64,000 nucleotides of DNA, taken from the NCBI GenBank assembly GCA_040772685.1, contig JAXGXQ010000001.1, positions 639,324 to 703,323 on the forward strand, read 5' to 3'. This document shows positions 23,181 through 50,741 of this stretch, in pieces (position 1 is the first letter of the stretch; every line of letters begins with the position of its first letter). The position numbers and the translations under genes were made by a program. The stretch comes from Clostridia bacterium. GTDB lineage: Bacteria; Bacillota; Clostridia; Saccharofermentanales; UBA5734. Below the pieces are notes generated by a model. The model searched no databases. It was not told the origin of the DNA and saw nothing but the letters and a program-made list of their open reading frames with translations.

Positions 23181-23196
23181 TTAAATACCCTCCTGA

Positions 23197-24068: not shown

Positions 24069-24109
24069 AAAAAATCAGGGACGTGCCTTGGTTTATCAAG
24101 ACACGCCCC
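24069..24109 (-). terminator. Intrinsic terminator after tctC1
   Basis: On the minus strand: GGGGCGTGTCTTG-ataaac-CAAGGCACGTCCC followed by tgaTTTTTT. Confidence 0.65.
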
Positions 24110-24133
24110 GGCTTGGTTCAGTTCAACATTTTA

Positions 24134-25240: not shown

Positions 25241-25347
25241 GAGGATCTCCTTTTCGTATTGGGTTTGGTTGTTTTTTTATGACACGTTAAACCATTTCAG
25301 ATTTTACGTAGACATTATGGTTACGGGCTTATGATTCAGCGGGACAA

Positions 25348-26850
25348 TTAGAACTCTTTGTTGGCAGTTTGTTTTTTCTTTTTGCGGATGCTTGCAAACA
25401 CCTGGTAAACCAGCAATAACGCAAAGAGGCCAAACAGTGTGCCAGAGATCGGGCGGGTAACAAATATACCGAAGGAACCGCCAGACATCAGCAAAGACTG
25501 ACGCATCGCGTTTTCTATCAGTGGCGTAAGGATGAATGCCATAAGCAGCGGACCGGTTTCGAACTTCAGCTTACGCAGGACGTAGCCGATAAGACCGAAC
25601 GCCAGCATGGTCAGAACAGTCGTGATTTCGTTGTTGATGCTGTAAGCACCGATAACTGTGAACAGGATAATAATTGGTCCAAGTATTGAAAATGGCACTT
25701 TGAGCAGCTGCACCCAGACACCAACCATAGGCAGGTTGAGGATAATCAGCATTACGTTGCCAATGTACATGGAGGCGACAACGCCCCAGAAAAGCTCTGG
25801 ATGATCGGTAATCAGGAACGGGCCCGGGGTAATGCCCTGAACCATCAGCGCTGCGAAGATCATCGCTACTGAGGCATTACAGGGTATACCAAGTGTTAAA
25901 AGAGGAATAAAGGAAGAGCTTGAAGCAGCATTGTTAGCTGATTCCGGTCCTGCTACTCCGGCGATAGAACCGTGACCGAACTCTTCCGGTTTTTTTGACA
26001 TTTTGCGTTCAATTGAATAAGAAGCCAGCGAGGAAATAACAGCGCCGCCGCCGGGGATAATACCGGCGAAGAAGCCGATCAATGTGCCGCGGACAATCGG
26101 CATGCGGGCTTCTGCCCATTCCTTGCCTGTCATAAACAGGCGACCGATCTTCTTAGTGACAAACTCATTTTCATTTTGCTCTTCAAGGGTGATCAGAATT
26201 TCACTTAATCCGAACAAACCCATTGCCAGGGTAACGAAGTCGAAACCGTCCTGCAGCCAGATCTGACCGAAGGTAAAGCGTTCCGCGCCGGAAACCGGGT
26301 CGATGCCAACGTTAGCCAGGAAAATACCTGTCATCAGCATCAGCATGCCTTTTATCGGGGAGTCGCCAGTCAGGAAGACTGCCAGCAGCAGACCGAGCAA
26401 CATCAATGAAAAATACTCAGGGGGACCAAAACGCAGAGCAAAGTTAGCCAGCGGCGGTGCCATGAAAGTAAGGCCGATAACGCCGAAGGTGCCGGCGATA
26501 AAAGAGCCGATGGCCGCAACAGACAATGCCGCGCCGGCTCGCCCTTGCTTAGCCATTTCATAACCATCGATAGCTGTAACAACTGAAGCTGCCTCACCGG
26601 GAATCTTCAACAGAATGGAGGTGGTTGAGCCTCCATACATGGCTCCGTAGTAAATACCAGCCAGGAAAATGATCGAGGTGGTAGGTTCGGGGAAACTATA
26701 AACAACCGGCAGCAAAAGAGAAATCGTCGCCGCAGGCCCTAAACCCGGCAGAACGCCAACTGCTGTACCGAGCAAGCAGCCAAGCAATGCGAATAACAGG
26801 TTATAACCTGATAAAGCCACTTGAAAGCCGGAAATAATTCCTTCAAACAT
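25348..26850 (-). CDS. tctA: Tripartite tricarboxylate transporter large permease TctA
   Basis: 500 aa, about 12 TM, N-terminal GVLPGLGPAATISLLLP and GEAASVVTAIDGY typical of TctA. Confidence 0.9.
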   Translation of the reverse strand: MFEGIISGFQVALSGYNLLFALLGCLLGTAVGVLPGLGPAATISLLLPVVYSFPEPTTSIIFLAGIYYGAMYGGSTTSILLKIPGEAASVVTAIDGYEMAKQGRAGAALSVAAIGSFIAGTFGVIGLTFMAPPLANFALRFGPPEYFSLMLLGLLLAVFLTGDSPIKGMLMLMTGIFLANVGIDPVSGAERFTFGQIWLQDGFDFVTLAMGLFGLSEILITLEEQNENEFVTKKIGRLFMTGKEWAEARMPIVRGTLIGFFAGIIPGGGAVISSLASYSIERKMSKKPEEFGHGSIAGVAGPESANNAASSSSFIPLLTLGIPCNASVAMIFAALMVQGITPGPFLITDHPELFWGVVASMYIGNVMLIILNLPMVGVWVQLLKVPFSILGPIIILFTVIGAYSINNEITTVLTMLAFGLIGYVLRKLKFETGPLLMAFILTPLIENAMRQSLLMSGGSFGIFVTRPISGTLFGLFALLLVYQVFASIRKKKKQTANKEF

Positions 26851-26868
26851 GTTTGCTTTCTTCCTTCC

Positions 26869-27339
26869 TTAAAATCCTAAAGGTCCTTTCGGCACGAAGA
26901 CGCGCAGCAGCTGCACAAAGACATAGTAGACAGAAATTGTGGATATAAATCCGATCAACAGGATTTTCCACCATTTTTCACGGACCAGAACTATCTGCCA
27001 GACTACCATGAATACAAATGTGGCCAGCACGTAGCCGAGAGGGTCAATCAGCAGTGCATAAGCCAGGCTGATCAGCATCGCCAGCAACGGCTGCTTCCAG
27101 ATGCCATTCGCCCAGAGCGGCTCCGAAACCGGTTTTTTGCCAATGGTGTTAACCAGTACCCAGATTAAGGCGATTAAAGCTATGCCAGCGCCGCTGATCA
27201 GCGGGACAAAGCCGGAACCTGGTTTGGAAAACGAACCAAAGTTTAAAAACCTGTAGCTGTACTGAATGATGTAAACTCCAAACAGAAAAAACACTACACC
27301 ACTAATGATTTCCTGCCGGGTTACCTTCTCCTCATTCAT
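26869..27339 (-). CDS. tctB: Tripartite tricarboxylate transporter small permease TctB
   Basis: Start moved to ATG 27339 (AAAGGAGGAA upstream). About 156 aa, 4 TM, immediately upstream of tctA. Confidence 0.8.
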   Translation of the reverse strand: MNEEKVTRQEIISGVVFFLFGVYIIQYSYRFLNFGSFSKPGSGFVPLISGAGIALIALIWVLVNTIGKKPVSEPLWANGIWKQPLLAMLISLAYALLIDPLGYVLATFVFMVVWQIVLVREKWWKILLIGFISTISVYYVFVQLLRVFVPKGPLGF

Positions 27340-27451
27340 TCTTGTTCCTCCTTTCAAATATCTGTTAATTTGATGCGATATTACGGGGGGTTACAATATT
27401 GTTTCTGCTTCAAAAAAAGGCAGAAAACTATTCCCAATATACCAAATTTAA

Positions 27452-27503
27452 CTGATATATCAGATCGCATTTAAAAGATAGCATCATAGCCGTAATTAGT
27501 CAA
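27452..27503 (-). promoter_or_regulatory. Promoter plus palindromic operator of tctB-tctA-tctC1
   Basis: On the minus strand: TTGACT (27498-27503), 17 nt, TATCTT (27475-27480), 11 nt, perfect palindrome CTGATATATCAG (27452-27463). Confidence 0.6.
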
Positions 27504-27710
27504 TCCGTTGCTTTTAACCAAATAAGAGCGGCTGTTTTTGTCGTATCTGTTGATAGTAATGGAAAATAAATGTTTGTCAAATTTGTTTTTGACCGTAAAC
27601 GCTTGCAAACAAACCAATTGTTAAAACAGCTGTTCAGATGCTAACAGTTAGCTGTTAACTACTAAAAGTTGTCAGGTAAACAGCAGTGTGCCTCAATTGT
27701 AAGCTTCTGA

Positions 27711-27762
27711 TTGACGTCTTAATAATTGAATGCTAAAGTTGAGTTGACATCTGATATACCAG
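27711..27762 (+). promoter_or_regulatory. Promoter plus palindromic operator of the HpcH-aldolase gene
   Basis: TTGACG (27711-27716), 17 nt, TAAAGT (27734-27739), 11 nt, CTGATATACCAG (27751-27762). Spacing is the same as at the two tct promoters. Confidence 0.55.
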
Positions 27763-27864
27763 TTAAAACATACTTCTGCCCCCGCTGTTTGAACGTTATT
27801 ATTATATCGTAATACGGCAGCTCCTGAAACACTAAAACCAGCAAATTCAAGGAGGATCAATTCT

Positions 27865-28623
27865 ATGTCTATCAAAGAAAAACTTGCTTCCGGTCAAAAT
27901 GTTTACGGTACCATGATTCGCTTGCAGCGCAATCCGGCAATTTCATTTTTTGCACAAAACGCCGGCCTGGATTTCCTGCTCTATGACTGCGAGCACGGCT
28001 CGTATAATTTTGAAACCCTGCACGATATCTTTGTCACCGGCAACGCCATGGGATTCGACAGCTTTGTCCGCGTGGCAGAACTCAGCAAAGACTGGATTTC
28101 ACGTGCACTGGATTGCGGCGCTACCGGCATAATGGTGCCGATGACCGAAACCGCTGAACAGGCGAAAGAAATTGTGAAGTGGGCAAAATTTACACCTGTC
28201 GGCGATCGCGGCTATGGCAGCGGCCTGGCTCACTCCAATTACAAAGGCGGCGGCAAGCATGTTGACGTTATGGCCACCCAGAACAACCGAGTTGTTGTTA
28301 TCGCCCAGATTGAAACCGGCCTCGCAGTTGAAAACGCTGACGCGATTGCCGCTACTGAAGGCATCGACGTTCTGCTGATCGGTCCTAATGACCTTTCAAT
28401 TTCACTCGGGATTCCCGGCGACCTGATGAATCAGATCGAAATTGACGCTATCGCCAAAGTTGCCGCAGCCTGTAAGAAACATGGCAAGGCTTTTGGTCTC
28501 CATGCCGGCGCCAAAATGCATGAAATCTTCAAGGATGACGAACAATTCCGGATGCTCTCCACTGACTTGGACCTTCTGGCCAGCGGTTTTAAGAACATCA
28601 AGGAAACACTCGAACAGATCTAA
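27865..28623 (+). CDS. HpcH/HpaI family class II (2-keto-3-deoxy acid) aldolase
   Basis: 252 aa. DFLLYDCEHG, GIMVPMTETAEQA, VIAQIET and LLIGPNDLS match the HpcH/HpaI/RhmA pattern. AAGGAGGA RBS. Confidence 0.85.
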   Translation: MSIKEKLASGQNVYGTMIRLQRNPAISFFAQNAGLDFLLYDCEHGSYNFETLHDIFVTGNAMGFDSFVRVAELSKDWISRALDCGATGIMVPMTETAEQAKEIVKWAKFTPVGDRGYGSGLAHSNYKGGGKHVDVMATQNNRVVVIAQIETGLAVENADAIAATEGIDVLLIGPNDLSISLGIPGDLMNQIEIDAIAKVAAACKKHGKAFGLHAGAKMHEIFKDDEQFRMLSTDLDLLASGFKNIKETLEQI

Positions 28624-28644
28624 TCGCTCAAGCGGCCAATAAGG

Positions 28645-28680
28645 AGAGCCACAGCAATTTGCGCTGTGGCTCTTTTGTTT
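28645..28680. terminator. Bidirectional intrinsic terminator between the aldolase and the SDR
   Basis: AGAGCCACAGC-aatttgc-GCTGTGGCTCT followed by TTTGTTT. Confidence 0.75.
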
Positions 28681-28712
28681 CCAAAATATTTTTGTTTATT
28701 ATGTGTTTAAAT

Positions 28713-29513
28713 TTATTTTGCGGAGTTTGCTTTTTCGTCCCAGGAATAGCCCGGGTTTTGCACGCAGAATTTTGCGCCAGATATTTCAATGGCGCTGCCA
28801 TTCATATAATCTGCTGCCGGTGACGAGATAAAAACTATTGGTTTGGCCAGGTCTTCAGCTGTTCCAAGCCTTCGCATCGCGATATTAGCCACTAGCTTTT
28901 CGCGGCTGATTGTCGCGTATATGTTCTTAGTCATTTCAGTTTCAATCTGGCCGGGAATATAAGCAACCACTCTAATTCCATAAGCAGCAAGCTCGCCCGC
29001 ATAAGTACGGGTCAAACTTAGTACAGCGGATTTGCAGGCAGAATAGAGCCCGCGGCCGGCATTTGGAATTACAGCCGAAAAAGATGAAGCATTGACAATC
29101 ACGCCGCCCCGGCCTTTCATCAGGCGGGCTGCTTCATTGCTGCCGATAATAAATGATTTCAAATTGATATCAGCAAGAAACTGGTAATCATCTTCATCGT
29201 ATTCAGTCAAAGATTTGATTATATTGGCGCCGGCATTGTTTACCCAGATATCAATCGGCCCCAACGCTTCGCTCACGGCAGCAGCGAATGCTTCAACATC
29301 TTTCTTGAGTGTAACATCACAAGTACGATAAAAAAGCTGCTCTGCGAAACCTTCCCGGCGGAAGATTTCCGCTGCTGCAGTCAGTTTTTCTGCACTTCGG
29401 CCGCAGATCGCAACTTTCGCGCCTTCACGCGCATACTCCAAAGCGGCTGCCAGACCAATGCCGCTGCCGCCACCGGTAATTACAACTACTTTTTCACTTA
29501 GTCCCAGATTCAT
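28713..29513 (-). CDS. Short-chain dehydrogenase/reductase (classical SDR)
   Basis: Start moved to ATG 29513 (GAGGAG upstream). TGGGSGIG, NNAG, YSACKSAV (Y-x-x-x-K). Start overlaps the gntR 3' end by 20 nt. Confidence 0.85.
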   Translation of the reverse strand: MNLGLSEKVVVITGGGSGIGLAAALEYAREGAKVAICGRSAEKLTAAAEIFRREGFAEQLFYRTCDVTLKKDVEAFAAAVSEALGPIDIWVNNAGANIIKSLTEYDEDDYQFLADINLKSFIIGSNEAARLMKGRGGVIVNASSFSAVIPNAGRGLYSACKSAVLSLTRTYAGELAAYGIRVVAYIPGQIETEMTKNIYATISREKLVANIAMRRLGTAEDLAKPIVFISSPAADYMNGSAIEISGAKFCVQNPGYSWDEKANSAK

Positions 29514-30201
29514 TCTCAGTCTCCTCAGCTTGATTGTTTTTGTCCTTAAAAACGAATACGGCGACACGGCGAATATGTTTACGCATTGCTTCTTCAGCAC
29601 GGTTAGCGTCACGTTCCCGGATAGCCTCGAGAATAGCCAGGTGCTCAGCGTGATCATGCTCGGGAGCCAGTTTCGGCAAGTTCATGTTGACGGTGCGCAT
29701 TGATTTATCAATTGAGCGCATATTCCCCAACAATCCCAACAGGTAATTATTACGTGAGGCAGAACGCAAAATTTGATGAAACAGATCATTTCCTTCACTG
29801 ATCAGCTGCCGGTCTTCCTTATTGCCAAGCTCAATAAGGCGGCCAACCTCTGTCAAAGCCGCTGTCATTTGAGCGATTTCAGCATCGGTAGCTTTAATGG
29901 CTGCATAATAAGCAGCTGTCCCTTCCAGCGAGCTGCGGATAAAAGTGACTTCCTCCATGTTAGTTTTGGACATTGGCGAAATGTAGGAACCTTTTCGAGG
30001 AATCGAATAAATTAATCCTTCAGCCTGAAGAATGCGAAAAGCTTCTTTTACAGGGGTTGTACTGACGTTAAGCATCTGACTGACGTATCTTTCGCTGATA
30101 GTCTGGTTCCCTTTCAGTTCACCCTTAAGGATCATGACACGGACAATGTCAGCTACTTGTTCACGTATAGGTAAAGACTGGACAATCATATTTTGCGGCA
30201 A
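29494..30201 (-). CDS. GntR family transcriptional regulator, FadR/FCD subfamily
   Basis: N-terminal wHTH (ISERYVSQMLNVSTTPVKEAFRILQAEGLIYSIPRKGSYI) and a helical FCD-type C-terminus with His residues. Start is TTG 30201 or ATG 30189. Confidence 0.85.
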   Translation of the reverse strand: MPQNMIVQSLPIREQVADIVRVMILKGELKGNQTISERYVSQMLNVSTTPVKEAFRILQAEGLIYSIPRKGSYISPMSKTNMEEVTFIRSSLEGTAAYYAAIKATDAEIAQMTAALTEVGRLIELGNKEDRQLISEGNDLFHQILRSASRNNYLLGLLGNMRSIDKSMRTVNMNLPKLAPEHDHAEHLAILEAIRERDANRAEEAMRKHIRRVAVFVFKDKNNQAEETENESGTK

Positions 30202-30220
30202 TTACATCAACAACCCTTTC

Positions 30221-30266
30221 GAAAATATCCGGGGCGTGATCTGTTTATTTTCAGGCCACGCCCCGG
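30221..30266 (-). terminator. Hairpin/terminator after tctC2
   Basis: CCGGGGCGTG (30229-30238) pairs with CACGCCCCGG (30257-30266) across an 18-nt loop, followed on the minus strand by ATATTTTC. Confidence 0.5.
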
Positions 30267-30285
30267 TAACATAAGCAGCAGATGA

Positions 30286-31410
30286 TTATTTGGTTGTGGT
30301 CGGTTTGGCTTGCTCAGCAGCAATTGCTTCCTTAATGCCAAGTTCGTCAGACAGTTTCTTGTAGTCTTCAAAAGCGTCATGGAGGAATTTATCAAATGTC
30401 TTGGCATCCTGATACAGAACTGGCTGCAGCATATCCTGCATGGTCTTCTTGAATTCTTCGTCTTCGCAAATTTCTTTGAACAGTTTTTCGTAATAAGCAA
30501 CGATTTCGTCCGGCAGGCCGATCGGGCCGGCTACGCCTTTAACAGAACCCCAGGTTGCGAGATCAATGCCTTGCTCTTTCAGAGTAGGAACATCGGGCAG
30601 AGCCGGGTCACGCTCAGGCAGAGCAATACCGAGGGCACGCAGTTTGCCGGATTTCAGGTGAGCAGCGATTTCAGCCGGGTGGCCGCCGCCGAAGTCAGTG
30701 TGGCCGGCCAGCAGTGTTGTGGTGGCAGGTCCGCCGCCTGAATGCGGGATCGGGGTGACATTGATGCCGGCACGTTTGCCGATACCGCGCATAACAAAGT
30801 CAACAGAGCCGGCAGCAGTTGAGTTGGCTGCTGTGAGTGTTTTATTGTTGTTTTTGGCGTCATCAACGAGGTCTTTCATTGTTTTATAGGGAGAGTTTTC
30901 CGGCACCGCCACTGCCACAGAGTGGATTGAGATGCGGGCGATCGGGCGCAGCTGTTCAAAAGGTTTGTACTGAACAGGCTGCACGTAAGGCATAACGAGT
31001 TCAGAACCGGAACCAAAGCCGATGGCGATTGTATAGCCGTCAGGTTTAGCATTGGCAACAAACAGGTTGCCGGTAACACCGCCGCCGCCGGGTTTGACAG
31101 CAACTGTCAGGGGCTGGTCACAATGCTTTGACCATACTTTTTCAACTGCACGGGCGAGCAGGTCAGTTGAACCGCCTGCGCCGTAAGGCACGATCATGGT
31201 GATGCCTTCTTTAGGCTCCCAGGTTTTGGCAGCTGTTGTGGTAGCAACAGTTGTGCCGGCTGTAGTGCCTGCTGTGGTACCGGCTGTGGTGCCGGCTGTT
31301 GTTGCCGCTGTGGTTGTCGCGGTTGAACCGCAGGCAGCCAAAACCAGGGACATAATGACTAACAGGGCGATCATCATTACAGAAAAGGTCTTTCTCTTTC
31401 CGGAATTCAT
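30286..31410 (-). CDS. tctC: TctC/Bug family substrate-binding lipoprotein, copy 2 (paralog of 24134-25240)
   Basis: Lipobox LAAC, TTAG-repeat linker. Mature domain is roughly 85-88% identical to copy 1 by eye. Has its own promoter and terminator. Confidence 0.85.
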   Translation of the reverse strand: MNSGKRKTFSVMMIALLVIMSLVLAACGSTATTTAATTAGTTAGTTAGTTAGTTVATTTAAKTWEPKEGITMIVPYGAGGSTDLLARAVEKVWSKHCDQPLTVAVKPGGGGVTGNLFVANAKPDGYTIAIGFGSGSELVMPYVQPVQYKPFEQLRPIARISIHSVAVAVPENSPYKTMKDLVDDAKNNNKTLTAANSTAAGSVDFVMRGIGKRAGINVTPIPHSGGGPATTTLLAGHTDFGGGHPAEIAAHLKSGKLRALGIALPERDPALPDVPTLKEQGIDLATWGSVKGVAGPIGLPDEIVAYYEKLFKEICEDEEFKKTMQDMLQPVLYQDAKTFDKFLHDAFEDYKKLSDELGIKEAIAAEQAKPTTTK

Positions 31411-41461: not shown

Positions 41462-42868
41462 TTGAAGAAGATAACTGAAGATTCTGTCTGCGAAACTAAT
41501 CAGCACAACGATTTTTCGCGTGGCTCAATTGCCGGCAATATCATGGGCATGGCTTTGCCGATGATGCTGGCTCAGTTTGTCCACCTGCTTTATAATATTG
41601 TTGACCGGTTTTACATCGGCCTGATGCCTGAAGACTCCTTTACAGCGCTCACCGCCCTTGGAGTCTGCCTGCCGGCAATTACTATTGTGCTGGCCTTCGC
41701 CAATCTGTTTGGCATGGGAGGCGGTCCTCTCTGCTCGATCGAACGCGGGCGCAATAATCTTGAAGAAGCTGAGCGCATTATGAACAACAGCTTCGTCCTG
41801 CTGGTTGGCAGCGGTCTGTTGTTGATGATAATTGGCCTGATCATAAAACGTCCGATGCTCTACGCATTTGGCGCCAGTGATATTACCTACCCTTTCGCCG
41901 ACCAGTATCTGACAATTTATCTATCAGGAAATGTGTTTGTGACAATTAGCCTGGGAATGAACCATTTTATCAATTCTCAGGGTTTTTCCCGCATAGGTAT
42001 GATGACTGTTGTCCTTGGCGCTGTAAGCAACATCATTCTCGACCCGATTTTTATTTTTACTTTAAACATGGGAGTGCGCGGTGCAGCTTTGGCGTCGGTC
42101 ATCTCCCAGTTTCTCTCCGCTTTATGGGTTATCCGCTTTCTTACCAGTCGTAAAGCGATCCTGCACCTGCGTTTGCCGGCCATGAGCCTGGAGAAAGTGC
42201 GGGTGCGCAAAATAGTGGCACTCGGCACTTCCGGTTTTGTCATGCAATTTACCAACTTCCTGGTGCAGGTGGTGTACAATGCCAGCTTGCAGCGTTTCGG
42301 CGGCGACTTATACGTTGGTATCATGACCGTAATCAACAGTGTACGAGAAATTGTAACGTTGCCCGTTTCCGGTCTTTCGAACGGCGCGCAACCTGTTATC
42401 GGCTACAACTACGGGGCCGGCAGGTACGACCGGGTAAAGCAGGCAATCCGTTACACCGTTATTGCCGGTATGATTTTCACCACAACAGTCTGGCTGCTGC
42501 TCTTGCTATTTCCCGGATTCTTTATTCGCATATTCAATCGGGACCCGGCGGTGGTCGCCGCCGGTATCCCTATGCTGCGCATTTACTTCGCAGCTTTCCT
42601 GACAATGTCGTTGCAGTTTGGCGGGCAGACAACCTTTGTGGCGCTCGGCCAGGCAAGGTATGCCATCTTCTTCTCCCTGTTCCGCAAAGTTATTCTGGTA
42701 ATTCCACTGGCGCTGATTCTGCCGCGTGTTGCTGGTCTGGATTGGATCGGCATCTTTCTGTCAGAGCCGATCTCAGACGTAGTCGGCGGTTCCGCCAGCT
42801 TTCTTACTATGCTTTATGTTGTGCGGCGTCTGCTGCGAGAAGAGGCAGTCAGCCAAACATGCCCTTGA
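41462..42868 (+). CDS. MATE family efflux transporter
   Basis: 468 aa, 12 TM, N-terminal GSIAGNIMGMALPMMLAQFVHLLYNIVDRFYIG. TTG start with weak RBS spacing. Confidence 0.85.
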   Translation: MKKITEDSVCETNQHNDFSRGSIAGNIMGMALPMMLAQFVHLLYNIVDRFYIGLMPEDSFTALTALGVCLPAITIVLAFANLFGMGGGPLCSIERGRNNLEEAERIMNNSFVLLVGSGLLLMIIGLIIKRPMLYAFGASDITYPFADQYLTIYLSGNVFVTISLGMNHFINSQGFSRIGMMTVVLGAVSNIILDPIFIFTLNMGVRGAALASVISQFLSALWVIRFLTSRKAILHLRLPAMSLEKVRVRKIVALGTSGFVMQFTNFLVQVVYNASLQRFGGDLYVGIMTVINSVREIVTLPVSGLSNGAQPVIGYNYGAGRYDRVKQAIRYTVIAGMIFTTTVWLLLLLFPGFFIRIFNRDPAVVAAGIPMLRIYFAAFLTMSLQFGGQTTFVALGQARYAIFFSLFRKVILVIPLALILPRVAGLDWIGIFLSEPISDVVGGSASFLTMLYVVRRLLREEAVSQTCP

Positions 42869-43076
42869 GTTTGTCAACAACTCCGCCTGCTTTATCACCG
42901 GCAAGAGCGGCTTTAGCACCATCAGCAATCTTATTGGTCACATCATCAGGAATGTCTACGCCCAGCAATGATTCGACAGCCTCAACAGGATTGCTTTTGA
43001 ATTTCTCAGCAAAGCCCGGGTCATTTTTGACTTTGTTGACAATTTCTTCGATTTTTTCTTTGATATTAAAATCCAT
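42849..43076 (-). CDS. Small (75 aa) acidic/Lys-rich protein of unknown function, last gene of the C1 operon
   Basis: Strong RBS AAAAAGGAG. Product is non-repetitive, helical-looking and ends in a Gly/Lys tail. Its 3' end overlaps the convergent MATE gene by 20 nt. Confidence 0.6.
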   Translation of the reverse strand: MDFNIKEKIEEIVNKVKNDPGFAEKFKSNPVEAVESLLGVDIPDDVTNKIADGAKAALAGDKAGGVVDKLKGMFG

Positions 43077-43148: not shown

Positions 43149-44006
43149 TCAGGCCTGTAGCTGACGCTGGCAAGCAGTCAGCACATTGCGCAGCAACAGC
43201 GCTGAATTTACAGGTCCGACGCCGCCGGGTACGGGTGTTATCGCTTTAACCAGTGAGCTGACCGGTTCGTAATCCACGTCTCCCACCAGCTTGCCTGCGG
43301 AATCAAGGTTAATGCCCACATCGATAACAGAGCTTTCGCTGTTAAAATATTCCGCTCCGAAGAAGTTCGCTTTGCCGATCGCTGCTACCACAATGTCCGC
43401 CGCCGCGGTCACGGCAGGTAAATCACGAGTTTTGGAATGACAAATTGTCACCGTAGCATTTTCATTCAGAAGCATCATGGCCAGCGGCCGTCCAACAACC
43501 ATGCTGCGGTTGACTATGGCCACTTCGCAGCCTGTCAGCGGACCGTGAAAATGCTTGCAGATTTCAACTACAGCTTCAGATGTTGTCGGGAACAGCACAT
43601 CACGCTCCCCCTGGAACAATTTAGCCAGATTCTCCGGGGTTATGCAGTCAATATCCTTAGCGGGATTCAGCAAATGCTTGATTACATCATAATCAAGCTG
43701 GGGCGGCAACGGCCGAAAAATCAAAATGCCGTGAACTTCGCTGTCCTGATTAAGCCGCGCCAGTAAAGCAGTAAAATCAGCCATCGGGATATCTGCGGGA
43801 TTCGCATAAACTCGGGCTTTAACACCTAATTGGTCGCTGCTGCGAATGATGCTGCGTTCGTAAGAAATATCGTCCGGGTTTTCCCCGACTCTAACAATTG
43901 CCAACCCAGGGGCGATCCCTTTTGCAGCCATGATGTTTTCTATATCTGCCTTAACCCGTGCCTTAATTTCCGCAACGAGTTCCTTTGTCTGCCAAATTTC
44001 AGCCAT
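43149..44006 (-). CDS. folD: Bifunctional methylene-THF dehydrogenase / methenyl-THF cyclohydrolase
   Basis: 285 aa, PGLAIVRVGENPDDISYERS, HGILIFRPLP, VVGRPLAMMLL, TPVPGGVGPV. Confidence 0.9.
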   Translation of the reverse strand: MAEIWQTKELVAEIKARVKADIENIMAAKGIAPGLAIVRVGENPDDISYERSIIRSSDQLGVKARVYANPADIPMADFTALLARLNQDSEVHGILIFRPLPPQLDYDVIKHLLNPAKDIDCITPENLAKLFQGERDVLFPTTSEAVVEICKHFHGPLTGCEVAIVNRSMVVGRPLAMMLLNENATVTICHSKTRDLPAVTAAADIVVAAIGKANFFGAEYFNSESSVIDVGINLDSAGKLVGDVDYEPVSSLVKAITPVPGGVGPVNSALLLRNVLTACQRQLQA

Positions 44007-44099
44007 GCTTTGCCTCCTGCTAATTCTTATTATGAGATGCGGTTTATGGGCTTTTGCAGTAAAATATAAACTTTTAACCGCTTAGGCATTAAGTCTGAT

Positions 44100-44723
44100 T
44101 CAGTGCAACTGTGCCTCAACTGTGGCGTAGATCAAGTCGGCCTGTTCACTGCCCCGGGCAACAAGCTCCGTAATTTCTTGTTCCAGCGCTTGCCGCACAG
44201 CAGTATCCTTCAGCAGCTTGGTGTTAATAAAAACGTTAAGTGCGGCACCTTGCAGCGCAGCCTTGCAAAAAGCGGCGCCAACGCCGACATCACTGATAGC
44301 GATGCGGGTGCCGATGCGGGCGTATTCCGCCTGCAGCTCAATAGCCTGCAAGCAGACACGGGCTATTTCCATCGGCGGCTGCACGGCTTCGATCAGCGCT
44401 GCCTGCATGATTTTTCCCCGTTCCAGCTTTTCGGCTTCAGTTGTCTGCGGTAAGCCATAAGCTCGGGAAAGCGGCTGGAAAGCTTCTGCGTCGCGGCTCA
44501 CCAGCAGTTTTAATTGTTCCGTAATTTCTGCTGACTTCAGCAAAAGCTGTTTAATTTCAGGCTCCACCTCGGCGTACTTTTTCCGGCCCAAGGTTAGGTT
44601 GCCAACCATACTGCCTAATGCCATCCCCACTGCTCCGACCAGTGCCGAAGCACCGCCCCCGCCGGGAACAGGTGAGCTTGAAGCCAAATCGGTGATAAAT
44701 TCATTGCAGCTTTGCTCCAGCAT
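44100..44723 (-). CDS. fchA: Cyclodeaminase/cyclohydrolase family protein (methenyl-THF cyclohydrolase FchA-like)
   Basis: 207 aa, all-helical. N-terminus FITDLASSSPVPGGGGASALVGAVG is typical of the formiminotransferase-cyclodeaminase C-terminal domain family. Confidence 0.75.
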   Translation of the reverse strand: MLEQSCNEFITDLASSSPVPGGGGASALVGAVGMALGSMVGNLTLGRKKYAEVEPEIKQLLLKSAEITEQLKLLVSRDAEAFQPLSRAYGLPQTTEAEKLERGKIMQAALIEAVQPPMEIARVCLQAIELQAEYARIGTRIAISDVGVGAAFCKAALQGAALNVFINTKLLKDTAVRQALEQEITELVARGSEQADLIYATVEAQLH

Positions 44724-44798
44724 GGTTAACTCCTTACTGTTTAAACGCTTGAGACATACCGGCCGCTGAACGCTTGTGACAAGCCGGCCGCTAAACGC

Positions 44799-46472
44799 TT
44801 ATGATAAACCGGTTATAACGCCATTTTCGGTAATATCGATGCGCTCGGCTGAGGGTACCTTTGGCAAGCCGGGCATAATCATAATATCACCCGTCAGGCA
44901 GACAATAAAGCCGGCACCAGCCGAAGGCCGAACTTCGCGGATTGTAATCTCAAAACCTTCCGGCCGGCCCAGTAGGGCAGGGTTATCGGAGAAGGAATAC
45001 TGGGTTTTGGCCATGCAGATCGGCAGCTTGTCGAGGCCGATAATTTCCAGACGTTCAATTTCCTTTTCCGCTTTGGGCGTGTAAATTACAGAACCAGCAC
45101 CGTAGATTTCGGTAGCTATGGCGGCAATTTTGTCTTTAACACTGGCGTTTACATCATACAGTTGCTTAAAATCATTGGGTTTTTCAGCGGCTGCGACAAC
45201 CTTGTTAGCCAGGTCAATACCGCCTTCCCCGCCTTTTTCCCAGACCTCACAAATTGAAACCGGCACGCCAAGAGCTGCGCATTTATCCTGCACCAGCTGC
45301 AGCTCAGCTTCAGTATCGCTGTGAAAACGGTTGACAGCCACAACGACCGGCAAACCAAACTTATTAATGTTTTCCAAGTGTTTTTCCAGGTTAACAAAGC
45401 CTTTGGCCAAAGCAGCAGTATCTTCTGTTTGCAATTCATTTTTAGCAAGTCCGCCATGCATTTTGAGAGCCCTTACAGTCGCTACTAATACAACGGCTGA
45501 CGGCTTAAGCCCGGCAGTGCGGCATTTGATGTCAATGAATTTTTCCGCGCCCAGATCAGCGCCAAAACCTGCTTCGGTTACCAGATAATCACACAGCTTA
45601 AGGCCCAGTCGTGTTGCCATTACACTGTTGCAGCCATGAGCAATGTTGGCGAAGGGGCCGCCATGTATGAAGGCAGGCGTATTTTCCAGCGTTTGCACCA
45701 GATTCGGTTTAATCGCGTCTTTAAGCAAAAGCGTCATTGCGCCCTGCATTTTAAGCTCGGCTACGGTAACCGGCTGGTTATTGAAGTTGTAGCCAATTAT
45801 TATACGCCCAAGCCGTGCCTTGAGATCGCTGAGGCCGCTGGCCAGACATAGGATCGCCATGATTTCGGAGGCAACTGTGATCATAAAGCCGTCTTCACGT
45901 GTGAAGCCGTTTGCTTTACCGCCCAGGCCGACGACAATCTGACGCAGCGCGCGGTCATTCATATCCAGCACTCGTTTCCAGACAATCTGGCGCGGATCGA
46001 TTTGAAGAGCGTTGCCAAAGTTAATATGGTTATCGATCGCTGCTGCCAGCAAGTTATTGGCAGTTGTAATCGCATGAAAATCGCCGGTGAAATGCAGGTT
46101 GATATCTTCCATCGGTACAACCTGTGCATAGCCGCCGCCAGCCGCTCCGCCCTTCATGCCAAAAACCGGACCAAGAGAAGGTTCGCGCAGAGCAACTGCA
46201 GCACTGCGGCCGATTTTTTCCAGAGCCTGGCCAAGCCCGATTGTGGTTGTCGATTTCCCTTCACCTGCCGGTGTCGGGGTAATCGCGGAAACCAGTATCA
46301 GCTTACCGTCGGGCTGTGCTTTGAGGCGGTCGAAAATTCCCAAGTCAATTTTTGCTTTAACGCGGCCGTACGGTTCTACTTCTGAATCCATAACACCCAA
46401 ACGCGCGGCAATTTCTGTAATCGGCAATAAATCAGCAGCCTGGGCAATTTCGATATCCGTCTTGAAAGCCAT
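44799..46472 (-). CDS. fhs: Formate--tetrahydrofolate ligase
   Basis: 557 aa, [42 protein letters not shown]. Confidence 0.95.
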
Positions 46473-46525
46473 ATGTTTCTCCTTTTTTGCACAAAAATGG
46501 AAAGTCAGATAAAGGAACAGGTATT

Positions 46526-46554
46526 ATTATACCGAACCAAGGGGTAGTTTGGGA
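46526..46554 (-). promoter_or_regulatory. Possible internal promoter ahead of fhs
   Basis: On the minus strand: TATAAT (46526-46531) with a weak TTCCCA/TCCCAA 17-18 nt upstream, in the 92-nt etfA-fhs gap. Confidence 0.25.
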
Positions 46555-46564
46555 ATTTGCCAGC

Positions 46565-47581
46565 TTATAACCGGGGAATTTCGTTAATCAACTCGGGAAT
46601 TATCTCGAACAGGTCACCGACTATAGCAATATCTGCCAACTGCATCATTGGTGTATCCGTTTGCTTGTCGATCGCGATTATCAGGTCACAAGCCTGCATA
46701 CCGACTAAATGCTGGATCTGCCCGGAAATACCGCAGGCTACGTAAACCTTGGTTTGCACGGTTTGGCCTGTTTGGCCGATCTGATGCGTATAAGGAATCC
46801 AGCCGGCATCAACAGCAGCGCGGCTGGCTCCAACAGCGCCGCCGACACGGTCGGCTAAACGCTGCAGAAGTTTGAAACCTTCTGGCCCGCCCACACCCCG
46901 GCCTCCGGAAATTATGATTCGGGCATCAGCGAGGTTAATTGCGGAATCACTGCTGTGTACTGTCTCCAGTATGTGTTTACGCAGAATAAAGTCGAGCGGC
47001 TGCAGTTTTTCGATCAGCAGGCGGCCGCTGCGGGAAGTGTCTGGTTCCGGCGCCTTCATAACCCTTGGTCTGACTGTGGCCAGTTGCGGACGGTGGTTGG
47101 TGCAGCGGATTGTCGCCAGGATATTACCGCCGAAAGCCGGTCTGGTTTGCAATAGATCGCCATTATCACGATCAATATCGAGTTGCGTACAGTCTGCGGT
47201 CAAGCCGCATTCGGCTAAAACCGCAACCCGCGGAATCAGCGCGCGGCCGCGAGTGGTGGCACCGGTAATGATTATCTCCGGCTTATATTTATCAATCAGC
47301 CTAACCAGCACGTTGGCTTCGATCTCGTCCTGAAAATCTGCCAGGGCAGCATCAACAACGCTGATTACGGTATCCGCGCCGGCGGCGTACAGCGAATCAG
47401 GCTGCACACCGGTTTCCGGTCCCATCAGCAAAACCCAAACCTCTGAACCGCGGATATCGGCGAGCCGACGGGCAGCGCCGATCAGTTCATAGGTTACAGG
47501 CTGAATTTTAGCCGCTGTAAGCTCGGCGGTTACCCAGACATTTTTGTAAAGTGACTTGTCAGTTTCGTTAATAATCAGCAT
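46565..47581 (-). CDS. etfA: Electron transfer flavoprotein alpha subunit
   Basis: 338 aa, C-terminal FAD motif VACGISGQIQHLVGM, GAGTGAGGTGA RBS. No N-terminal ferredoxin domain. Confidence 0.9.
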   Translation of the reverse strand: MLIINETDKSLYKNVWVTAELTAAKIQPVTYELIGAARRLADIRGSEVWVLLMGPETGVQPDSLYAAGADTVISVVDAALADFQDEIEANVLVRLIDKYKPEIIITGATTRGRALIPRVAVLAECGLTADCTQLDIDRDNGDLLQTRPAFGGNILATIRCTNHRPQLATVRPRVMKAPEPDTSRSGRLLIEKLQPLDFILRKHILETVHSSDSAINLADARIIISGGRGVGGPEGFKLLQRLADRVGGAVGASRAAVDAGWIPYTHQIGQTGQTVQTKVYVACGISGQIQHLVGMQACDLIIAIDKQTDTPMMQLADIAIVGDLFEIIPELINEIPRL

Positions 47582-47593
47582 CTTTCACCTCAC

Positions 47594-48382
47594 TCAAAGC
47601 ACACTGCGCAAACGCAGTTCCCGCACCAGTTTACGGGCTGTTTCCTGTGCAGTTCCGGTCAAGACAAGCGTCGCGCTGTCACGCTGTGGCGGCGGCTGCG
47701 TTTTGACCACCCGGGTCGGCGAACCATGTAAACCGATCTTCCCTGCATCAGCGCCGATATCCGCCGGCTGCCAGATCGGAATATCTGATTTTTCAGCTTT
47801 CAGCCGGCCGCGCAAAGTAGGCACGCGAGGGACGTTGATTCCTTTGAGTACAGTCAGAACCGCCGGGAATTCCAAAGCACAGACATCGTGGCCATCTTCA
47901 TGCATACGCTTTACAGTTACGGAGTCTTCAGCAGCGTCTTCCAGAGCCATGACACAGGTTGCCTGCTGCCAGCCAAGGTGGGCGGCAATACCGGGCCCCA
48001 CCTGCGCGGTGTCACCGTCAATAGCCTGCTTGCCGCAGATAACCAGATCAACCTCGCCAATTCTGCTGATGGCTTTAGACAATACATAGCTCGTCGCCCA
48101 GGTGTCGGAGCCGCCAAAAGCTCGGTCACTGAGCAGAACAGCACGGTCCACTCCTACGGAAATCGCTTCCTTCAGCGCCTGCAGCGCTTTTTCCGGGCCC
48201 ATGGATATCGCGATAACTTCGCCGCCTAACTTCTCCCGCAGTCGAACGGCGGTTTCCAGGGCATAAATGTCAAAAGGATTCAAAATGGCATTAACGCCTT
48301 CCCGCACAATCCGCTTGGTTTCCGGGTCGATCTTGGCATCGTTCGACGCCGGCACTTGCTTAATGCAAACAACTGTTTTCAT
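47594..48382 (-). CDS. etfB: Electron transfer flavoprotein beta subunit (group-2/bifurcating-like motif)
   Basis: Start moved to ATG 48382 (GAGGAG upstream). VVCIKQVP and DLVICGKQAIDGDTAQVGP. Lies 12 nt before etfA. Confidence 0.9.
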   Translation of the reverse strand: MKTVVCIKQVPASNDAKIDPETKRIVREGVNAILNPFDIYALETAVRLREKLGGEVIAISMGPEKALQALKEAISVGVDRAVLLSDRAFGGSDTWATSYVLSKAISRIGEVDLVICGKQAIDGDTAQVGPGIAAHLGWQQATCVMALEDAAEDSVTVKRMHEDGHDVCALEFPAVLTVLKGINVPRVPTLRGRLKAEKSDIPIWQPADIGADAGKIGLHGSPTRVVKTQPPPQRDSATLVLTGTAQETARKLVRELRLRSVL

Positions 48383-48392
48383 TGCGCTCTCC

Positions 48393-49190
48393 TCAGCCCC
48401 ATGTACCTTCAACTAAGTGATACTGGGTTTTAAAACCGAGTATCGAAAGGTAAATCCCTGCCTGAGGGTAAATCCGTTGAAGCTGTCTTAAAGTAGCAAG
48501 CGGATCGAAGGCAGTATTTTCCGGAATCGGGTAGCCAACCGCGTCCGACAGCAGGTGCAGCTTTTTGCTCATCCAGGCCTCAATAATTACCGGCAGATCC
48601 GGGTAACGAACCAATAGACGGTCAACTACTGCGTTCTGTTCAATCAAGGGTTGGGTGATAATAAACTCCGCACCGGCGGCCAGCTTGTTTTCCAGCTTCC
48701 TGAACTCATGTTCCTCCGGCTCATAGGGATTGAAGGCGGCGCCGATGTGGAATACACCGGGGTACTGCTCTTTGACGTAACGGATCAACTCAACCGAAGT
48801 CACAGTTTCACTGCCAATAGCGCCTATATCAGCCGGCTGCAAGCGGGGCAGCCTGTCGGAACCGTCACCGGAAATAATCAACAATTCAAAAATACTGTTT
48901 TGCTGACAGAAGTCCAGAATCTCGTGCAGGTTTTCTTTGGTATGAAAGGTATTGAGATGAATCATTACCTGACCGGGCCGGCACTTAAGCCCAAGTTCGG
49001 CGATCATTTCATGCCCTTGAAAAGCCAGGTTGCCCATGGCGTTATCGGTCAGGCAGGCAACATAGCCACTGGCCATAACCCGTTCAAATTTGCTGGCAAA
49101 GAGTTCAAGATCCGCCAGCAGTTTTTCGGTATCCTGTTTCGTTGGCAAAATTTCGACATGATAGATTTTGTTTTTGATTTCCTGGTGCAT
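48393..49190 (-). CDS. Divergent methylenetetrahydrofolate reductase (MetF)-like protein
   Basis: Start moved to ATG 49190. The ordered landmarks VEILPTK, IHLNTF, LLIISGDG, AAFNPYEPEEHE, KLAAGAEFIITQP and LPVIIEAW parallel MetF motifs FEFFPP, HLTC, LALRGD, AAYPExHPE, KVDAGAxxAITQ and IPGI. Confidence 0.6.
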   Translation of the reverse strand: MHQEIKNKIYHVEILPTKQDTEKLLADLELFASKFERVMASGYVACLTDNAMGNLAFQGHEMIAELGLKCRPGQVMIHLNTFHTKENLHEILDFCQQNSIFELLIISGDGSDRLPRLQPADIGAIGSETVTSVELIRYVKEQYPGVFHIGAAFNPYEPEEHEFRKLENKLAAGAEFIITQPLIEQNAVVDRLLVRYPDLPVIIEAWMSKKLHLLSDAVGYPIPENTAFDPLATLRQLQRIYPQAGIYLSILGFKTQYHLVEGTWG

Positions 49191-49286
49191 ATACCACTTC
49201 CGCCTTTCCCCGGGCATACTTCAATAAAGCCCCGGCTTGCCTGGGTTAACAAGCAGCGTTGCCCTCAGCTGTTATTTATATAAAAA

Positions 49287-50087
49287 TCAGAGTTCGAGTT
49301 CGCCTGCGCGGAATCTGGTGAGATAATTCATGCAAAAATCATCTGTCCCCAGCAACGCCTCGGTGGCGTAAAGGAACGTCATCAGCTTTTTATCGAGCGG
49401 ATCAAGTATGGCTCCATCCATGCCGACGGTCATCGCCGCCACCAGGAACGCCTGGTTCATTACTTTTCGGGCCGGGATACCAAAGGAAATATTGCTCAGG
49501 CCGCAGGCAATGTGCGCCTCCGGATATTCCTCCTTAACCCGACGGATTGTCTCGAGCGCGACAACACCATAATGCGAGCCGGTGCCAATCGGCCGGATCA
49601 TCGGATCGATGAAAATATCGTCCAGAGCGACACCGGATTTGGTTAATATCGCGATCAGAGTATCAGCGATCTTAACCCGTTGATCCGCAGTTTCCGGCAT
49701 ACCGGTATCATCCATACAAAGAGCGATTACAGCGGCCTTATGTTCAGTTATCAAGGGCAAAACAGCGTCAAACCTTGCTTTCTCCCCTGTAATCGAATTA
49801 ATGATCGGCTTGCCGTTACGGTTTGTTTCCAGGCCAACCCGCAAAGCTGCAGGGTTAGGTGAATCTATAGCAAAGGGCACAGCCAGTTCGGCCTGGATTG
49901 TTTCAATCAGCCATTTAAGTATTTCCGGCTCCTGCTCCAGAAACATGCCGGCATTAACGTCAAGAAAGCAGGCTCCGGCTTCTGCCTGGCGCCTGGCCAA
50001 ATCCAGAATGGCAGCTTCGTCACGCGCCTCCATGGCTGGACGAACCGCTTTCAAGGTGCTGTTTAATTTCTCACCAATAATGATCAT
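49287..50087 (-). CDS. Pterin-binding methyltetrahydrofolate:corrinoid methyltransferase (AcsE/MeTr family)
   Basis: 266 aa. IIIGEKLNS, FLDVNAG, IINSITGE, IDPMI and CGLSNISFG align by eye with the Moorella MeTr pattern. Confidence 0.8.
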   Translation of the reverse strand: MIIIGEKLNSTLKAVRPAMEARDEAAILDLARRQAEAGACFLDVNAGMFLEQEPEILKWLIETIQAELAVPFAIDSPNPAALRVGLETNRNGKPIINSITGEKARFDAVLPLITEHKAAVIALCMDDTGMPETADQRVKIADTLIAILTKSGVALDDIFIDPMIRPIGTGSHYGVVALETIRRVKEEYPEAHIACGLSNISFGIPARKVMNQAFLVAAMTVGMDGAILDPLDKKLMTFLYATEALLGTDDFCMNYLTRFRAGELEL

Positions 50088-50403
50088 TTATGCTCCTCCT
50101 TGAAGACGCGTTGTGCCGCCTTCAATCTAGACTTCAGAAAACAGGAAGTTTCTGAATTGGATTTGCTTTTATCTTAATTGTTAAGTGCTATTCAAGCAAC
50201 AAAACCACGCATTTTGCACAAAAGAATACCAGAATTTAAAATTTATTCGCATATCAGCGTTGGCAAAAAATTTTGCAGTTGTAAATGCAGAATCAGCAAG
50301 CTGCTAATAAACTCAAAAAATTATTAAGTTTTATCATATTTGTGCCACAATTGCTTGTTACACTGCTTTACAAGAATCCTTCCTTCCACACAATCATCAA
50401 CAG

Positions 50404-50433
50404 AAAAGGCGCCCCCGCACAGGCGCCTTTTTT
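50404..50433. terminator. Bidirectional intrinsic terminator after the 79-aa gene
   Basis: AAAAGGCGCC-cccgcaca-GGCGCCTTTTTT. Confidence 0.75.
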
Positions 50434-50501
50434 GTCGTTCAATTTCTGGGGATATCGGCTTGCAATTAAGTTCTGCGCGGCTGTCGTTTTTCGCTTCGGC
50501 C

Positions 50502-50741
50502 TCACCCGTCAGTATCGACAAGCCCCGGCTTCAGCTTGGCTGCTTCTTCATTTGTCAATACATCAACAAAGGAAGTGCGCATCAGGTTTTCCGCGTCGCA
50601 ATCCTGGGCATAAAACCAATCACGCACAGCTTTTTCTGTTTCTTCATCGGTTGCTAATGGAGCGTATGGATAGACGGCGATCACTTTCATTGTGACCCAG
50701 TCGCGGATACCTGCTTTCTTGTCTGAATCAAATTTTCTCAT
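50502..50741 (-). CDS. Small (79 aa) hypothetical protein
   Basis: Strong RBS AAAAGGAGGG 6 nt upstream of the ATG, followed by its own terminator. No motif recognised. Confidence 0.6.
   Translation of the reverse strand: MRKFDSDKKAGIRDWVTMKVIAVYPYAPLATDEETEKAVRDWFYAQDCDAENLMRTSFVDVLTNEEAAKLKPGLVDTDG

Follow-up and report, generated by a model that had tools for sequence, protein, structure and literature searches.

A methylenetetrahydrofolate reductase-like gene linked to bifurcating-type etfB and etfA genes as a candidate Etf-dependent methylene-tetrahydrofolate reductase of anaerobic bacteria

Reducing methylene-tetrahydrofolate (methylene-THF) is the most exergonic step in the methyl branch of one-carbon (C1) metabolism, and the NAD+-dependent oxidation of methyl-THF is the recognized thermodynamic bottleneck when methyl groups or acetate are oxidized. 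The described architectures of methylenetetrahydrofolate reductase (MTHFR) comprise MetF alone, MetFV, RnfC2-MetFV and MetFV-HdrABC-MvhD, together with an untested NuoEFG type, and a paper of July 2026 distinguishes four MTHFR types in acetogens. A coupling of MTHFR to an electron-transferring flavoprotein (EtfAB) exists as a hypothesis only: it has been proposed more than once and dropped since gene linkage was unknown, and it was judged unlikely for Clostridium ljungdahlii because each etfAB set of this organism adjoins another dehydrogenase. So far, Bcd, CarC, LctD and FixCX have been recognized as clients of Etf, and an MTHFR barrel is not among them. Here we describe a 64-kb stretch of DNA from a Clostridia bacterium (contig JAXGXQ010000001.1), hereafter the window, in which the gene of a divergent MTHFR-like protein (MetF-like) is directly followed by etfB and etfA inside a C1 operon on the minus strand. 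A preliminary description of this locus had proposed a candidate Etf-dependent methylene-THF reductase and had stated that such an Etf partner was so far only hypothesized without gene linkage; the latter is borne out by the searchable literature, which leaves subscription-only papers aside and yielded no description of a metF-etfBA linkage. The former is supported by the MTHFR membership of the MetF-like protein, the type of the Etf pair, conserved synteny, co-evolution and the lack of a rival partner in the window. The refuting conditions set out in that description, as far as they could be run computationally, all turned out in favor of the proposal. Most likely, with a probability of about 0.6, the three gene products constitute an Etf-dependent, probably bifurcating or confurcating MTHFR/methyl-THF dehydrogenase, for which we infer the complex, the cofactors and the bifurcation from the comparisons given below.

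Gene calls were taken from the open reading frame (ORF) listing of the window and from Pfam and NCBIfam profile searches (Table 1). Coordinates and profile matches agree with the seven-gene order given in the preliminary description, i.e. MeTr, MetF-like, EtfB, EtfA, Fhs, FchA and FolD, and so does the tight packing that it had noticed in the trio: as read from the sequence, the metF-like/etfB and etfB/etfA spacers measure 10 and 12 nt, whereas the others range from 75 to 96 nt (MeTr/metF-like, 96 nt; etfA/fhs, 92 nt; fhs/fchA, 75 nt; fchA/folD, 93 nt). The Shine-Dalgarno sequence of etfB, GAGGAG, lies in the 3' end of the metF-like gene, as described before, and overlaps its TGA stop; the two short junctions are of the translational-coupling type. 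The metF-like frame stays open up to an ATG at 49217, and the ATG at 49190 has a Shine-Dalgarno sequence of its own; the latter start is favored because the homologues are 265-267 amino acids long. MetV, Hdr, MvhD and RnfC partners, previously reported not to be adjacent, are missing over a much wider range, since no MetV (MTHFR_C), Hdr, MvhD, RnfC, NuoEF, CODH/ACS or corrinoid protein was found in the 64-kb window when the other ORFs of at least 90 amino acids were included in the annotation, and this annotation gave no other dehydrogenase candidate for the Etf either. The adjacent MetV by which MetFV-type enzymes are recognized is hence absent beside the MetF-like gene. The nearest relatives are uncultured Oscillospiraceae metagenome-assembled genomes (MAGs), with 95 and 86% identity, and the locus occurs in anaerobic-digester and bioreactor metagenomes.

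The adjacency of metF-like, etfB and etfA is kept near-universally in relatives from several phyla. When 185,579 species were scanned, each represented by a single genome, 180 genomes with a relative were revealed, and the best 80 of these 180 loci were analyzed. According to an approximate tally of record labels, they include about 47 Bacillota, 20 Spirochaetes (many of which come from sediment or the gut of termites) and 4 Atribacterota, and the remaining ones are one or a few MAGs each with Lentisphaerae/Verrucomicrobia, Deltaproteobacteria or Abditibacteriota labels. Of the 78 loci with enough sequence, 77 have etfB directly downstream of metF-like and on its strand, and etfA comes after etfB in 70 of 70, the median gaps being about 27 and 16 nt, respectively. 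Because the same order recurs in these independent species-level loci, the adjacency is not a matter of chance. The flanks vary, with the trio standing alone (in Clostridium thermosuccinogenes and in one 2.37-Mb genome), with MeTr, or with MeTr-folD-fhs, and no MetV, Hdr, RnfC2 or NuoEFG partner genes were found in the annotated related loci. The three proteins also co-evolve. Mirror-tree correlations reached r = 0.77 for MetF-like/EtfB (mean distances 0.29 and 0.29) and r = 0.81 for MetF-like/EtfA (0.30 and 0.32), which is almost as tight as the r = 0.85 of EtfB with EtfA (0.29 and 0.32). The members of the trio gave values of 0.51-0.59 against MeTr or Fhs (mean distances 0.52 for MeTr and 0.39 for Fhs), and MeTr/Fhs gave r = 0.88 (0.48 and 0.39). 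These correlations indicate that the trio, and not the whole C1 operon, is the evolutionary unit with its own history; presumably it is a functional unit as well.

Two Akkermansia-labelled MAGs (L033 and L036), a Lentisphaerales locus (L043) and a fourth locus (L080) share the order MeTr-fhs-metF-like-etfB-etfA; their MeTr is divergent (34-38% identity), and their Fhs has 44% identity. Misbinning or horizontal transfer may lie behind the Akkermansia labels; a further protein (P0029) likewise bears the label Candidatus Nomurabacteria.

The MetF-like product had been proposed to belong to the MTHFR family, and it scores above the Pfam cut-off (Table 1) with a match to PF02219 that is confined to profile positions 9-184 of 287. 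Its own family is large and tightly conserved: the search retrieved over 1,100 homologues (66-98% identity among the top matches listed), and the mean column identity of a 23-sequence alignment was 81%. When 1.84 billion representatives were searched exhaustively with a profile, clade members scored 120-318 bits and canonical MTHFRs followed, after a gap, at 55 bits or less; judged from these scores, the clade is compact and stands apart from canonical MetF, to which the MetF-like protein is about 16-22% identical. The top match in a PDB sequence search was yeast MTHFR (38.6 bits). The NCBIfam equivalogs TIGR00676 and TIGR00677 were not reached (29-31 bits versus cut-offs of 294-310), NCBIfam has no model specific for the clade, and the relatives carry the database names "methylenetetrahydrofolate reductase (NADPH)" or hypothetical protein. 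The AlphaFold model (pLDDT 79.8, pTM 0.81) is an eight-stranded alpha/beta barrel whose top 14 Foldseek matches are all MTHFRs (TM about 0.67, E-values from 3e-11 to 1e-8). When E. coli MetF (identical to 1zp3_A) was aligned with clade members and canonical representatives, its residues E28, H88, G119-D120, K172, G176 and Q183 were found to be kept as E13, H78, G108-D109, K169, G173 and Q180 of the window protein, and the equivalents of E28, H88, D120, K172 and Q183 are unchanged in 81 of 81 module MetF-like sequences. By Pfam score, predicted fold and invariant residues, the MetF-like protein is a real but deep-branching MTHFR. The earlier remark that every MTHFR landmark is degenerate applies to the flavin/NADH side, which is changed, and has to be withdrawn for the catalytic residues.

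A weaker structural neighbour (TM 0.62, 14% identity) is PDB 3ijd, i.e. Cthe_2304 of Clostridium thermocellum, a structural-genomics protein with two bound 5-methyl-THF molecules and another uncharacterized MTHFR-fold protein of Clostridia. Two proteins (P0245 and P0234) considered as MetFV-type references to place the short loop after beta-5 of the clade were discarded, their contigs being too short to show MetV.

The Etf pair had been assigned to the bifurcating, FAD-binding form on account of a motif in EtfB, and a comparison with characterized Etfs leads to the same grouping. EtfB scored 198-215 bits against five solved bifurcating Etfs (CarD, Thermotoga FixA, Acidaminococcus fermentans, LctB and C. 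difficile) and about half as much, 95-106 bits, against the non-bifurcating ETFs of human, Paracoccus and Methylophilus; the corresponding values for EtfA were 240-315 and 109-151 bits. The top PDB matches were CarD for EtfB (215 bits) and CarE for EtfA (315 bits). The EtfB motif DLVICGKQAIDGDTAQVGP is present in the window protein, where DGDTAQVG is identical to that of CarD, and QA(I/V)DGDTAQ(V/I)G occurs in 75 of 75 module EtfBs. Non-bifurcating ETFs have an AMP site at the place where bifurcating EtfB carries the beta-FAD motif DGDTAQVG. EtfA is devoid of an N-terminal ferredoxin domain, its alignments beginning at residue 64 of CarE and residue 66 of LctC, and no Fe-S-type cysteine motif was found in MetF-like, EtfB or EtfA. 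Similarity and motif together point to an Etf pair of the bifurcating (group-2) type.

A mechanism can be proposed by analogy with Bcd-, CarC- and Ldh-EtfAB, in which MetF-like, EtfB and EtfA would form one dedicated enzyme system. The TIM barrel of MetF-like would bind folate and probably a flavin of its own, and its conserved Glu/Asp/Gln set would carry out the hydride chemistry between methylene-THF and methyl-THF. The mobile alpha-FAD domain of EtfA would shuttle single electrons between this site and the bifurcating beta-FAD in EtfB, where NADH/NAD+ would react and from which the low-potential electron would pass to or come from ferredoxin (or flavodoxin). The net reaction would be 2 NADH + Fd(ox) + CH2-THF <-> 2 NAD+ + Fd(red, 2 e-) + CH3-THF. 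In the reductive direction, the energy of the exergonic step would be conserved as reduced ferredoxin; in the oxidative direction, reduced ferredoxin would pull the endergonic NAD+-dependent oxidation of methyl-THF, as in Ldh-EtfAB. Within the window operon, the trio would catalyze the middle step between methyl-corrinoid (MeTr) and formate (FolD, FchA and Fhs), the Fhs step being ATP-linked. The published potentials are -200 mV for CH2-THF/CH3-THF, -320 mV for NAD+/NADH and about -420 to -500 mV for ferredoxin, and from these our own arithmetic gives about -4 to +12 kJ/mol for the bifurcating reaction. The pyruvate/lactate couple lies at -190 mV, and the Acetobacterium woodii Ldh-EtfAB runs as a confurcation. 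Because of these values and of the similarity between the two couples, the reaction is expected to be near equilibrium and reversible.

Several observations weigh against an Etf-dependent MTHFR of this kind. The flavin/NADH side of the MetF-like barrel is altered: T59-Y60 is replaced by T-D and the TYGA segment by TDNAMG, R118 by S/T, and F223, the Phe that stacks on NAD(P)H and folate in canonical MetF, by an invariant Leu, and there are deletions of 5 residues after beta-5 and of about 22 before beta-8. Some flavin-contact positions thus differ (Y60 to D, R118 to S, and the 5-residue deletion) and others are kept, and because of these changes flavin binding by the barrel is not to be assumed. 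The first 19 residues of the model, including E13, are predicted with low confidence. One locus (L019) is the sole exception to the gene order, with fhs in the place of etfB, and no Etf linkage is seen in the more distant members of the clade (27-49% identity), which confines the association with Etf to the core clade. A canonical MTHFR, CODH/ACS or another client of the Etf may be encoded in this genome outside the window. Where the trio occurs in sugar fermenters, for instance C. thermosuccinogenes, it stands alone and away from other C1 genes, which fits a housekeeping role in which energy coupling would matter little. Finally, low-depth RNA contigs of at least 95% identity from four digester metatranscriptomes fall on all seven genes and one of them crosses the etfB/etfA junction, but none crosses the metF-like/etfB junction at this thin coverage; therefore, the contigs establish transcription and leave the operon structure aside.

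As regards the exception, the MetF-like protein of L019 (10001-12857) is 70% identical to that of the window, no Etf is encoded within 10 kb downstream, and it may be a natural Etf-less variant. Among the distant members, P0128 (37% identity) is encoded alone beside cytochrome bd oxidase genes (L090/L091, 6001-6789), and therefore the wider DNPMG-motif MTHFR-like clade has members with other partners.

If the three proteins formed the same complex without bifurcating, EtfAB would be an NADH-oxidizing entry module, like RnfC2 in A. woodii, and ferredoxin would take no part. NADH-dependent non-bifurcating MTHFRs do exist (E. coli MetF and RnfC2-MetVF), a ferredoxin domain is missing from EtfA, and housekeeping by the lone trio of sugar fermenters would need no energy coupling. 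Nevertheless, the beta-FAD motif of bifurcating Etfs is kept in every module EtfB, both Etf subunits score highest against solved bifurcating Etfs, and three of the latter (7koe FixAB, 5ol2 from C. difficile and 4kpu from A. fermentans) are matched over their full length and lack the N-terminal extension of CarE and LctC. A plain NADH-dependent MetF works without any partner, and the retention of two extra genes in 77 of 78 genomes therefore argues that EtfAB adds something. We consider a non-bifurcating complex rather unlikely.

The other two alternatives question the substrate or the partnership itself. An MTHFR-fold barrel might have been recruited to another pterin or to a non-pterin substrate, with its redox reaction served by Etf, and the low identity to canonical MetFs, the scores far under the NCBIfam equivalog cut-offs and the motifs TDNAMG, AFNPYEP and EAWMSKK, which are the clade's own, would be in keeping with such a recruitment. 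But the folate-binding and -activating residues of E. coli MetF (E28, D120 and Q183) are invariant and the great majority of the genes next to the trio belong to folate C1 metabolism (MeTr, Fhs, FolD and FchA), which makes a non-folate enzyme improbable. Slightly less probable still is that there is no physical partnership and that Etf serves a dehydrogenase encoded elsewhere, the adjacency being due to co-regulation or co-transfer only. Etf genes often have several possible clients, and the MetF-like/EtfAB complex is a prediction; against this, the adjacency (77/78 and 70/70) holds while the genomic surroundings change, the co-evolution comes close to that of the two Etf subunits with each other, and no other dehydrogenase gene was consistently near the trio across the loci examined. 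Taken together, these comparisons favor the dedicated, probably bifurcating MetF-like/EtfAB enzyme over its alternatives.

The direction in which this enzyme would work was considered from the genes that surround the trio in the 80 loci. MeTr is present in 61 of them, Fhs in 38, FolD in 11, a FocA-type formate channel in 15 (typically directly after etfA), a B12-binding corrinoid protein in 11, the corrinoid activator RACo in 8, a URO-D-type methyltransferase in 13 and a PocR/AraC regulator in 10; 23 loci have some corrinoid-methyltransferase component. These neighbours all converge on methyl-THF. An oxidative use, from methyl groups to formate and ATP, is favored by the methyltransferase systems and the formate channel, and also by the one lineage L087/L088, where the trio and a canonical YitJ-type MTHFR lie two genes apart. 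A reductive use is favored by the lone trio of sugar fermenters and by several spirochaete loci with S-methyl_trans, Pterin_bind, a B12-binding protein and RACo, a gene set that looks like a split methionine synthase. Neighbourhood and thermodynamics thus fit either direction.

A tentative extension, which we hold to be possible though doubtful, is that the module lets non-acetogenic anaerobes ferment methyl groups to formate. Corrinoid methyltransferases and MeTr would deliver CH3-THF, the confurcating MetF-like/EtfAB would oxidize it with consumption of reduced ferredoxin and formation of 2 NADH, and FolD/FchA followed by Fhs (formate and ATP) and FocA export would complete the route. The proposed fermenters would be Oscillospiraceae of digesters and further Clostridia, spirochaetes of gut and sediment, and Atribacterota. 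In a more radical form of this extension, the barrel flavin would have been lost and the alpha-FAD of Etf would give or take the hydride directly at the folate site. CODH/ACS was considered as a companion of the module and dismissed, for it was found neither in the window nor in the sampled flanks of spirochaete, Akkermansia-labelled and Atribacterota loci. A comparative paper reports that Treponema primitia lacks metF and metV and that its reductase is unknown. We do not claim that the module fills this gap; homologue searches seeded with Breznakiellaceae and termite-Treponema sequences returned only MAG or metagenome proteins, none of them named T. primitia.

Some of these neighbourhoods contain further genes. 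The L087/L088 cluster (L087 1-20801, on a 470-kb MAG contig) comprises two URO-D genes, S-methyl_trans, the S-methyl_trans+MTHFR (YitJ-type) fusion, Pterin_bind, the trio, PocR-AraC regulators, a B12-binding protein and RACo, with parts of a split MetH-like methionine synthase. A canonical MTHFR beside the module was rejected as a general feature, the YitJ-type fusion being verified only in this lineage; the apparent canonical-MTHFR hits in three other loci (L060, L064 and L074) are S-methyltransferase domains only. In several sediment spirochaete loci, etfA is directly followed by an ECF/CbiQ-type transporter set of CbiQ, a double ABC ATPase and an ECF S-component (L073 12689-15922 and L076 15082-15960), through which a cofactor (riboflavin, cobalt, cobalamin or folate) may be provided.

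Table 1. Features of the 64-kb window.
Feature	Position	Strand	Evidence or remarks
MeTr, methyl-THF:corrinoid protein methyltransferase	49287-50087	-	Pterin_bind 90 bits; NF005719 343 bits (cut-off 259)
MetF-like, 265 aa, deep-branching MTHFR-fold TIM barrel (by score and model)	48393-49190	-	Pfam MTHFR 39.4 bits (cut-off 24)
EtfB, putative bifurcating (group-2) type	47594-48382	-	ETF 151 bits; beta-FAD motif QAIDGDTAQVG
EtfA	46565-47581	-	ETF 157 bits; ETF_alpha (alpha-FAD) 121 bits
Fhs, formate-tetrahydrofolate ligase	44799-46472	-	FTHFS 919 bits; NF010030 939 bits
FchA, methenyl-THF cyclohydrolase	44100-44723	-	FTCD_C 221 bits
FolD, methylene-THF dehydrogenase/cyclohydrolase	43149-44006	-	THF_DHG_CYH_C 184 bits; THF_DHG_CYH 94 bits
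Terminator-like hairpin	50400-50435	n/a	14-bp stem, 7 GC pairs, T-run; closes the upstream 79-aa ORF
AT-rich leader/putative promoter region	50088-50399	-	sigma-70-like sites 50361-50333 and 50348-50320; 9/12 consensus matches only
Promoter-like site, etfA-fhs spacer	46526-46555	-	TTCCCA-18-TATAAT, 10/12; consensus match only
79-aa ORF	50502-50741	-	own Shine-Dalgarno sequence, strong terminator, no Pfam family
75-aa ORF	42849-43076	-	strong Shine-Dalgarno sequence; 3' end overlaps convergent MatE gene
URO-D-family protein	12085-13203	-	70 bits, C-terminal half only
Apparent organic-acid/sugar-acid catabolic island	21108-31410		
TctC-TctA-TctB tripartite tricarboxylate transporter genes	24134-27357		in the island
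Second TctC	30286-31410		in the island
Split transketolase	22200-24036		in the island

The hairpin between the 79-aa ORF, which lies directly upstream of the operon, and MeTr marks the upstream (5') boundary of the operon (Table 1), and from its sequence the AT-rich leader is inferred to act as the operon promoter; the site in the etfA-fhs spacer is a possible internal promoter for fhs-fchA-folD. Neither the leader nor the rest of the window gave a match to a riboswitch or any other RNA family of Rfam. MeTr was also considered as a CODH/ACS-type AcsE and rejected, the score in NF040758 (CODH_ACS_meth) being 138 bits and the cut-off 370. The unannotated 75-aa ORF just downstream of folD shows the top RNA depth of the region in the four metatranscriptomes (6-17 versus 1-5 over the operon), and all RNA contigs on it stop at about 43277, within the 3' end of folD; it has no Pfam or Rfam match and, among related loci, is kept only in the near-identical L007. 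Elsewhere in the window, the URO-D-family protein is only 30% identical over 183 amino acids to trio-adjoining URO-D methyltransferases of other genomes and might act in this organism as a corrinoid-dependent methyltransferase. The island further holds a 2-hydroxyacid dehydrogenase, an HpcH/HpaI aldolase and a short-chain dehydrogenase.

With carriers in about 180 species, the metF-like/etfB/etfA unit offers the first genomic support, and a concrete clonable candidate, for the long-hypothesized Etf-driven MTHFR. If the assignment is true, the bifurcating Etf family would gain a new class of client and the MTHFR classification a further subunit architecture. Because the genes are annotated as plain MTHFR (NADPH) or as hypothetical, the redox balance of this step has probably been mis-assigned in reconstructions of digester, gut and sediment MAGs. 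The idea is directly testable because there is a cultured carrier of the trio, C. thermosuccinogenes (protein AUS96928.1), in which CDQ84_02165 and the next two genes downstream make up the trio. Were the methyl-fermentation extension also true, it would represent an unrecognized formate-producing methylotrophic fermentation that feeds syntrophic partners.

Among the Etf systems described so far, the A. woodii Ldh-EtfAB (LctBCD) resembles the window module in that a bifurcating-type EtfAB is encoded beside its client dehydrogenase, LctB and LctC rank among the top PDB matches of the window EtfB and EtfA, and the client couple (-190 mV, versus -200 mV for the folate) is oxidized with NAD+ at the expense of co-oxidized reduced ferredoxin; its client, however, comes from another dehydrogenase family and not from the MTHFR TIM barrels, and the N-terminal extension of LctC is absent from the window EtfA. 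Bcd-EtfAB (C. difficile and A. fermentans) and CarCDE (A. woodii) share the EtfAB architecture, the motifs and a client gene next to etfB-etfA, but their clients are enoyl-CoA reductases with acceptors at about -10 to -30 mV and run strongly towards bifurcation, whereas the folate couple of the window module would sit near equilibrium. The three-gene "EtfAB" clusters of syntrophic acetate oxidizers were considered as the same module and rejected, for they are acyl-CoA dehydrogenase clusters.

With respect to the MTHFRs, the MetFV-HdrABC-MvhD enzyme of Moorella thermoacetica (type IV, or 6S MTHFR) catalyzes the same reaction and has been proposed to be an NADH-dependent bifurcating/confurcating MTHFR, whose second acceptor is not known; it uses MetV, an Fe-S subunit, together with an Hdr/MvhD module, and the window has neither. 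RnfC2-MetVF of A. woodii and MetFV of C. ljungdahlii are likewise anaerobe MTHFRs encoded in fhs-fchA-folD-type clusters, but both need MetV and both are non-bifurcating, the former being NADH-dependent via RnfC2 and the latter reduced-ferredoxin-dependent via MetV. The single-subunit FAD enzymes of the E. coli/Thermus MetF type share the fold (TM about 0.67) and E28, H88, G119-D120, K172, G176 and Q183 with MetF-like, which differs from them by an identity of about 16-20%, TDNAMG for TYGA, R118 to S, F223 to L, the two deletions and the Etf linkage. The MthfD and LigM-cluster MetFs of aerobic THF-dependent demethylation (dicamba, vanillate and chloromethane) belong to clusters that also combine a methyltransferase, a divergent MetF, FolD and a formyl-THF-cleaving enzyme, although these are found in aerobes, are devoid of Etf, contain PurU in place of Fhs and have no corrinoid component described. 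The MetF of this branch acts physiologically as a 5-methyl-THF dehydrogenase without NADH-dependent reductase activity, and by cluster content and activity the MthfD branch is the closest functional analogue of the window module on the catabolic side.

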